A stretch of DNA of 8,961 nucleotides. Origin: a virus. Taxonomy: Duplodnaviria; Heunggongvirae; Uroviricota; Caudoviricetes. A program made the position numbers and the translations under genes. Positions 7,176-7,457 of this stretch are shown here, piece after piece. The stretch lies in IMG/VR virus record IMGVR_UViG_2548876934_000005; one strand, 5' to 3'. Numbering within the stretch: position 1 is the first letter of the stretch; each line of letters starts with the position of its first letter. Under the pieces are notes generated by a model. That model did no database searches, was not told where the DNA came from, and saw nothing but the letters and a program-made list of their open reading frames with translations.

Positions 7176-7457
7176 ATGAGTATCAATGAGTTAGAGTCTG
7201 AGCAAAAAGATTGGGCGTTATCAATGTTGTGCAGATCCGGTGTCTTGTCTCCATGCAGACATCACGAAGGTGTTTATGTAGATGAAGGTATAGATATAGA
7301 GTCGGCATACAAATATTCCATGAAGGTTTATAAGTCTAATGAAGACAAATCCCCATTCTGCAATGTGCGAGAAATGACTGATACCGTGCAAAATTATTAT
7401 CACGAGTACGGTGGAAACGATACTTGCCCTCTCTGTACAAAACATATAGATGATTAA
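7176..7457 (+). CDS. Small Cys-rich hypothetical protein (93 aa), possible zinc-binding
   Basis: ATG at 7176 preceded by a strong Shine-Dalgarno (AGGAG, 7164-7168). Contains Cx7C (CRSGVLSPC) and CxxC (CPLC) pairs. Followed by tandem hairpin terminators. Confidence 0.5.
   Translation: MSINELESEQKDWALSMLCRSGVLSPCRHHEGVYVDEGIDIESAYKYSMKVYKSNEDKSPFCNVREMTDTVQNYYHEYGGNDTCPLCTKHIDD

Follow-up and report, generated by a model that had tools for sequence, protein, structure and literature searches.

The window, by which we mean the whole 8,961-nucleotide stretch of DNA analysed here, is the argW integration hot spot of Escherichia coli. It holds a gutted HK620/Sf6/KplE1-type prophage of about 7 kb between attL and attR (Table 1). 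The whole structural, replication and immunity core has been deleted from this remnant, with the junction somewhere around 6100-6260, and the tailspike gene is truncated to its C-terminal part. The gene under study occupies a slot between an Ea22-like gene and orf55/torI, and the order ea22, ea8.5, orf55, excisionase is that of bacteriophage lambda. An earlier reading of this DNA made from its letters only (hereafter the sequence-only reading) had assigned the gene to the early region of a prophage, and this position in an exo-xis region agrees with that assignment. The Ea22-like ORF could start as early as 6077, and the orf55 homologue shows about 9 mismatches to lambda lambdap35.

Table 1. 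Features of the argW locus and of the ea8.5 gene, with positions in the window
Feature	Position	Strand	Basis or remark
yfdC	1-933		
tRNA-Arg CCT (argW)	1009-1083		
attL core, CTGCAGGGGACACCAT	1069-1084	+	3' end of the argW tRNA-Arg gene
intS	1209-2402		
Hypothetical gene	2578-3585		335 aa
Acyl_transf_3 gene	3983-5140		O-antigen-acetylase-like acyltransferase
Tailspike-like gene, C-terminal part	5170-6396	-	Matches positions 431-778 of a 779-position PHROG profile
ead/Ea22-like gene	6131-6973	+	PF13935, E 3e-29; start as annotated in Z1323HEC0011
Shine-Dalgarno of ea8.5, AAGGAG	7163-7168	+	Sequence reading; identity with lambda
ea8.5 coding sequence, 93 aa + TAA	7176-7457	+	ATG at 7176, TAA at 7455-7457; PF20735, phrog_6325, tblastn, DNA alignment
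Codon of C19, non-conserved Cys	7230-7232	+	Alignment of 50 homologues
C27-R28-H29-H30, first half of putative zinc site (C27-x2-H30)	7254-7265	+	Predicted beta-hairpin; conservation, model
Codon of C62, non-conserved Cys	7359-7361	+	Alignment of 50 homologues
C84-P85-L86-C87, second half of putative zinc site (CxxC)	7425-7436	+	Start of C-terminal helix; conservation, model
First terminator-like hairpin + T tract, lambda t3	7476-7505	+	Terminator scan, folding, PMC4195576 Table 4
Second terminator-like hairpin + T tract, lambda t4	7507-7536	+	Terminator scan, folding, PMC4195576 Table 4
orf55 homologue, 55 aa	7546-7713	+	phrog_676, E 1e-38; alignment to lambda lambdap35
Bidirectional terminator of orf55, lambda t5	7703-7722		Scores on both strands
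torI, excisionase of the KplE1/HK620-type recombination module	7771-7971	+	RefSeq annotation of the identical region; phrog_66
attR core	8045-8060	+	Repeat of the argW 3' end; closes the ~7 kb remnant
Second integrase	from 8155		

The att core CTGCAGGGGACACCAT is repeated after torI, and in the near-identical strain Z1323HEC0011 this 16-nt sequence occurs three times (1621-1636, 9946-9961 and 18441-18456), the third copy adjoining dsdC. The repeats after torI and beside dsdC therefore mark two islands in tandem at argW, the second starting with the integrase at 8155. In Z1323HEC0011 the second island carries a rolling-circle Rep gene and GapS6a/GapS6b genes. That strain also has an IS421 (5769-6881) between the acyltransferase gene and the tailspike remnant, which is absent from the window (about 5140-5170), so the window derives from another strain.

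Two further observations concern the remnant itself. Sixteen nucleotides of the argW T-arm, TTGCAGGTTCGATTCC (1054-1069), recur exactly at 7736-7751, just 5' of torI and at the very point where the window ceases to match lambda. Phage vB_EcoP-683R2, which is P22-like, has this 16-mer 5' of its excisionase gene as well (5987-6002), so the copy belongs regularly to this excision module; it may descend from an older att site or serve as a binding site for a protein. The 335-aa ORF between intS and the acyltransferase gene has a hydrophobic N-terminus that looks by eye like a signal peptide. Searches of this ORF returned no Pfam match above threshold and no NCBIfam match, and it is possibly part of a serotype-conversion module.

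The ORF is an exact copy of lambda ea8.5

The ORF is bacteriophage lambda gene ea8.5, copied exactly, an identification that we regard as close to certain. By tblastn, the protein is 100% identical to lambda Ea8.5 over 93 aa (lambda 29377-29655), and the same identity is found in about 20 lambda derivatives and lambda-like records (21 in one count). In DNA, identity to lambda is 100% across the gene and the 76 nt that precede it, and the hairpin region 3' of the gene differs at 2 bases. Lambda homology as a whole extends from about 6266, inside ea22, to about 7728, just past the orf55 terminator. The protein matches Pfam PF20735 (Lambda_ea8_5) with E 1.1e-48 and 164.3 bits, for a gathering cut-off of 27 bits, residues 8-93 aligning to profile positions 1-90 of 90. 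It also matches phrog_6325 (PHROG 6325) over its full length (E 8e-54).

We also searched 1.84 billion cluster representatives in full with HMMER; at a cut-off of E up to 1e-3 this returned 73 homologous clusters (clustered at 50% identity). These clusters, the PF20735 score and the 100% identity to lambda in both protein and DNA together show that the ORF is a real gene and not a chance one. An overlapping ORF on the minus strand (7221-7616, 131 aa) was considered and set aside as a chance ORF; it has no Pfam match. The NCBIfam search gave no match for Ea8.5, orf55 or TorI, and the name 'Ea8.5 family phage-derived protein' is already in use in some RefSeq records. The gene, its family, its fold and its downstream terminators have all been described previously for lambda.

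The predicted metal site is C-x2-H ... C-x2-C

Ea8.5 contains five cysteines, C19, C27, C62, C84 and C87. The sequence-only reading had singled out a Cx7C and a CxxC pair. Both spacings are present, as C19-x7-C27 and C84-x2-C87, and C62 had been overlooked. We judged conservation on an alignment of 50 full-length homologues from the HMMER scan, 26-61% identical to Ea8.5; a word-indexed protein search had returned near-identical E. coli sequences and fragments only. C27, C84 and C87 are invariant (50/50 each), and H30 is conserved in 49 of the 50. C19 is a cysteine in 8/50 homologues, the others having V, L, I or M at what is a hydrophobic position of helix 1, and C62 is a cysteine in a single homologue of the 50, where the others have E, D, S, Q or A. 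Three of the five cysteines are thus conserved and two, C19 and C62, are not, and the Cx7C spacing does not hold up as a conserved pair. In the two homologues of known structure, the same columns read CRIH...CPQC (2M7A) and CEVH...CFSC (2M7B).

Since C27, H30, C84 and C87 are conserved and C19 and C62 are not, we predict a metal site of the form C27-x2-H30 ... C84-x2-C87 rather than Cx7C plus CxxC. On conservation and the structural model combined, we hold this ligand set to be close to certain, and C19 is an unlikely ligand. The metal would be zinc, as the conserved ligands and the titles and descriptions of NMR work on homologues indicate. The same two lines of evidence support the earlier suggestion that the protein belongs to a zinc-binding family.

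Outside the ligands, two motifs are conserved in the family: A-Y-K at residues 44-46, and R-x-M-T-D at residues 65-69, where helix 3 begins. Lambda Ea8.5 departs from the family consensus at V64, V71 and Q72; the consensus has basic residues at positions 64 and 72 (K at 72), where lambda has V and Q. The protein is acidic, with a net charge of -8 and a pI of 4.8. This is a property of the family, whose median net charge is -8 and median pI 4.7, and 47/50 members are negative.

Ea8.5 is predicted to adopt a mostly helical fold

A single-sequence AF2 model of Ea8.5 was unusable (pLDDT 41), and an alignment-based model was used instead. This model reaches pLDDT 87 and consists of four helices, at residues 3-21, 41-54, 64-78 and 85-92, with a single hairpin formed by strands 24-26 and 34-36; about 60% of it is helical. 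In the model, the hairpin bears C27 and H30, and C84 and C87 lie where the last helix begins.

A Foldseek search of the model against the PDB found 2M7A (E 7.8e-5, TM 0.64/0.69, probability 1.00) and 2M7B (TM 0.59/0.69, probability 1.00), and nothing else with E <1 among the best 50 of 78 matches (E up to 10). There was no homeodomain among these best 50 of 78 matches, nor in a PDB profile search. Against viral predicted structures, one 94-aa protein matched with probability 1.00 (TM 0.68, E 0.04, 14% identity); nothing else in that search was informative. The predicted fold is, close to certainly, the mostly helical one of 2M7A and 2M7B, NMR structures of Ea8.5 homologues that Kwan et al. (2013, Biochemistry 52:3612) describe as a hybrid homeodomain/zinc-finger fold.

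The sequence-only reading had proposed a zinc-ribbon-like fold. That proposal fails, as the model is a helical bundle with one beta-hairpin, the predicted ligands are CxxH plus CxxC, and the best 50 of 78 PDB matches include no zinc ribbon, 2M7A and 2M7B being the only ones among them with E <1.

Translation and termination signals flank the gene

AAGGAG, read directly from the sequence, lies 7 nt 5' of the ea8.5 ATG and is identical in lambda; it is the consensus Shine-Dalgarno that had been noticed earlier. The tandem terminators noticed with it are likewise present. 3' of ea8.5 there are two terminator-like hairpins with T tracts and G+C-rich stems (7476-7495 and 7507-7526). When folded, the 94-nt intergenic RNA forms just these two hairpins, with an energy of -25.8 kcal/mol (z = -3.5 against shuffles). 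They correspond to the predicted lambda terminators t3 and t4, and the orf55 hairpin to the predicted t5 (Bloch et al. 2014, PMC4195576, Table 4). An Rfam search of the window found a tRNA only, and no known RNA element at the ea8.5 locus.

The inference that the gene looks expressed stands in part. Its translation and termination signals are in place. In lambda, the exo-xis region including ea8.5 is transcribed from pL; the prophage remnant contains no pL-type promoter region and no N-type antiterminator gene, and a consensus promoter scan of the + strand upstream of ea8.5 and of the Ea22-like gene found nothing above shuffle expectation. With the pL/N promoter region and the antiterminator gene deleted, the copy in the window is probably a relic, either silent or expressed weakly. 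Ribosome profiling cited by Bloch et al. places ea8.5 among the genes expressed in uninduced lambda lysogens. A local promoter may therefore have gone unrecognised, and the copy in the window might be expressed after all.

The slot of ea8.5 is exchangeable

Among 5426 complete E. coli genomes, we found the ea8.5 allele in 246 (~4.5%), in every case at >=99% identity. This patchy distribution of a near-identical allele suggests recent horizontal spread. Phage vB_EcoP-683R2 has the same Ea22 ... orf55-excisionase arrangement as the window, with an ASCH-domain gene (5441-5725) in place of ea8.5 between ea22 and orf55. The position between ea22 and orf55 is therefore a swap site for small accessory genes. 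Elsewhere, the Ea8.5 homologue P0025 lies just 5' of xis/int in prophages, and distant homologues are found among the early recombination genes (RecT, YqaJ) of other phages.

A 661-bp query that included orf55 matched 2974/5426 E. coli genomes, against 246 for ea8.5 alone. Judged from this query, the orf55 homologue (phrog_676) appears far more widespread than ea8.5. A T7 Gp2-like fold, that of an RNA polymerase inhibitor, has been proposed for the orf55 product in a published model.

Proposed function of Ea8.5

The literature treats Ea8.5 as a small regulator of phage development, which is one of the roles that the sequence-only reading had offered. Los et al. (2008) report that ea8.5 alone on a plasmid strongly repressed paQ, slightly repressed pI and left pE unaffected. 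The plasmids were multicopy, and the exo-xis region as a whole acts more strongly on these promoters than ea8.5 alone. When ea8.5 carried a frameshift in a multicopy exo-xis fragment, development after H2O2 induction was delayed, and the gene is classed with the pro-lytic exo-xis genes. By CRISPRi it is non-essential. Yeast two-hybrid partners of Ea8.5 are Int, Q, Ren, Stf, Tfa, Ea8.5 itself and host MinE; the authors of that screen flag it as a promiscuous bait with at least 10 partners, hence less reliable. Kwan et al., from the structures, favour a role as a transcription factor that binds nucleic acid.

Our overall reading, to which we give a probability of roughly 60%, is that the window carries the lambda ea8.5 cassette in a deleted argW prophage and that the cassette encodes a zinc-site protein damping CII-dependent promoters via a protein partner. 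The gene forms a cassette within the exo-xis (early-left) segment of an HK620/Sf6/KplE1-type prophage that has undergone heavy deletion. In the protein, one structural zinc, held by C27 and H30 on the hairpin and by C84 and C87 at the last helix, would tie the C-terminal helix to the helical bundle. In an intact phage, ea8.5 is transcribed early, from pL under N antitermination, and is dispensable for plaque formation. In the published plasmid experiments it lowers CII-dependent promoters, paQ strongly and pI weakly, which moves the lysis/lysogeny decision towards lysis. We infer that it does so by binding to a protein rather than to DNA, the partner being RNA polymerase or a regulator of phage or host origin; protein binding is favoured because the whole family is strongly acidic. 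The t3 and t4 hairpins may halt transcripts that are not antiterminated before they reach xis/int, or torI in this prophage. Taken as a claim about mechanism, this picture of a zinc-stapled module that binds a protein partner and thereby damps CII-dependent transcription is a tentative proposal, to which we give somewhat less than even odds.

The description of the fold invites a different proposal, in which Ea8.5 is a sequence-specific DNA-binding transcription factor whose homeodomain-like helix 3 (residues 64-78, with the R-E-M-T-D motif) directly represses paQ-type CII-dependent promoters. The published structures are described as having a homeodomain-like part and a zinc finger, both classical modules for binding nucleic acid, and it is the structure authors who suggest a transcription factor. 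The top conserved non-ligand residues, R65, T68, D69 and position 72 (consensus K), cluster at the start of helix 3. The strong acidity of the family (net -8, pI 4.8; 47/50 negative), however, is unlike that of homeodomains, and at positions 64 and 72 lambda has V and Q instead of the consensus basic residues. Neither Foldseek (best 50 of 78 matches) nor the PDB profile search gave a homeodomain or DNA-bound protein at a meaningful score, and no DNA binding is reported in the literature consulted. We therefore consider direct binding to DNA unlikely. More generally, the uniform acidity of the family argues against the DNA-binding role that is commonly assumed from the 'homeodomain/zinc-finger' label.

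A protein partner might also lie outside transcription. Ea8.5 is small, acidic, early and non-essential in the laboratory, its slot is exchangeable (the ASCH-domain gene of vB_EcoP-683R2), its allele is patchy (246/5426 genomes at >=99% identity), and distant homologues stand beside RecT and YqaJ genes. These features would suit an anti-defence or host-takeover inhibitor, the other role offered by the sequence-only reading, that binds and blocks a host immunity or housekeeping protein, the effect on lysogeny being indirect. The same features, however, fit any accessory 'moron', and our literature searches on Ea8.5 and its fold found no link to anti-defence activity or to any defence system, which makes this role improbable in our view. 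A more specific idea is that Ea8.5 binds MinE and targets host cell division, adding to the cell-cycle synchronisation or the block to replication initiation attributed to exo-xis. MinE is a two-hybrid partner, and early studies tie the region to synchronised division. The match is a single one, made with a bait that its own authors flagged as promiscuous, and a review treats the idea as tentative; we give it very little weight.

A bolder reading may also be stated, although we find it doubtful. Ea8.5 would be an acidic zinc-stapled protein-binding module, not a nucleic-acid binder, that phages swap in and out at the position between ea22 and xis and that neutralises one particular host protein. 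The target might be, for example, a factor in defence, a protein that regulates the stability or activity of CII, or one associated with RNA polymerase. If this is true, a lambda gene that is among the last still uncharacterised would gain a biochemical function.

The window has little discovery value in itself: it carries the standard lambda allele and adds nothing unique on Ea8.5 function. What the analysis contributes is a correction, in that the predicted metal site comprises C27, H30, C84 and C87 and not the Cx7C pair, together with the argument from acidity given above and the observation that P22/HK620-type prophages at argW are a further vehicle of the lambda ea8.5 cassette.

Comparison with known systems

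Lambda Orf73/TraR resembles Ea8.5 in being a small zinc-binding early protein encoded in the same exo-xis operon, and it reprogrammes transcription. Unlike Ea8.5, it has a C4 site, and its fold is DksA-like and enters the secondary channel of RNA polymerase; neither the sequence searches nor the best 50 of 78 fold matches link it to Ea8.5. Ea8.5 resembles zinc-ribbon proteins in its small size, its CxxC and, probably, in having one structural zinc. Two beta-hairpin knuckles with two cysteines each make up a zinc ribbon, whereas Ea8.5 is predicted to have one CxxH hairpin and a CxxC at the N-terminus of a helix. The two halves of the Ea8.5 site are 54 residues apart, again unlike the knuckles of a zinc ribbon.

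The closest structural relatives are 2M7A, from E. coli O111:H- ORF ECO111_1119 (40% identity; E 2.5e-18 by sequence, 2.7e-27 by profile), and 2M7B, from Pseudomonas putida PP_3909 (28% identity; E 9.5e-4 by sequence, 7.5e-20 by profile). Both have the CxxH...CxxC columns of the Ea8.5 in the window, and neither has a cysteine at the positions of its C19 and C62.

Compared with lambda itself, the window holds the cassette in another element, the gutted HK620/Sf6/KplE1-type prophage integrated at argW. There torI stands in the place of lambda xis-int, the pL/N region is missing, and the C-terminal half of the Ea22-like protein differs from that of lambda. The Ea8.5 protein, the DNA of its gene and the neighbours ea22 and orf55 are the same as in lambda (NP_040611, 29374-29655).
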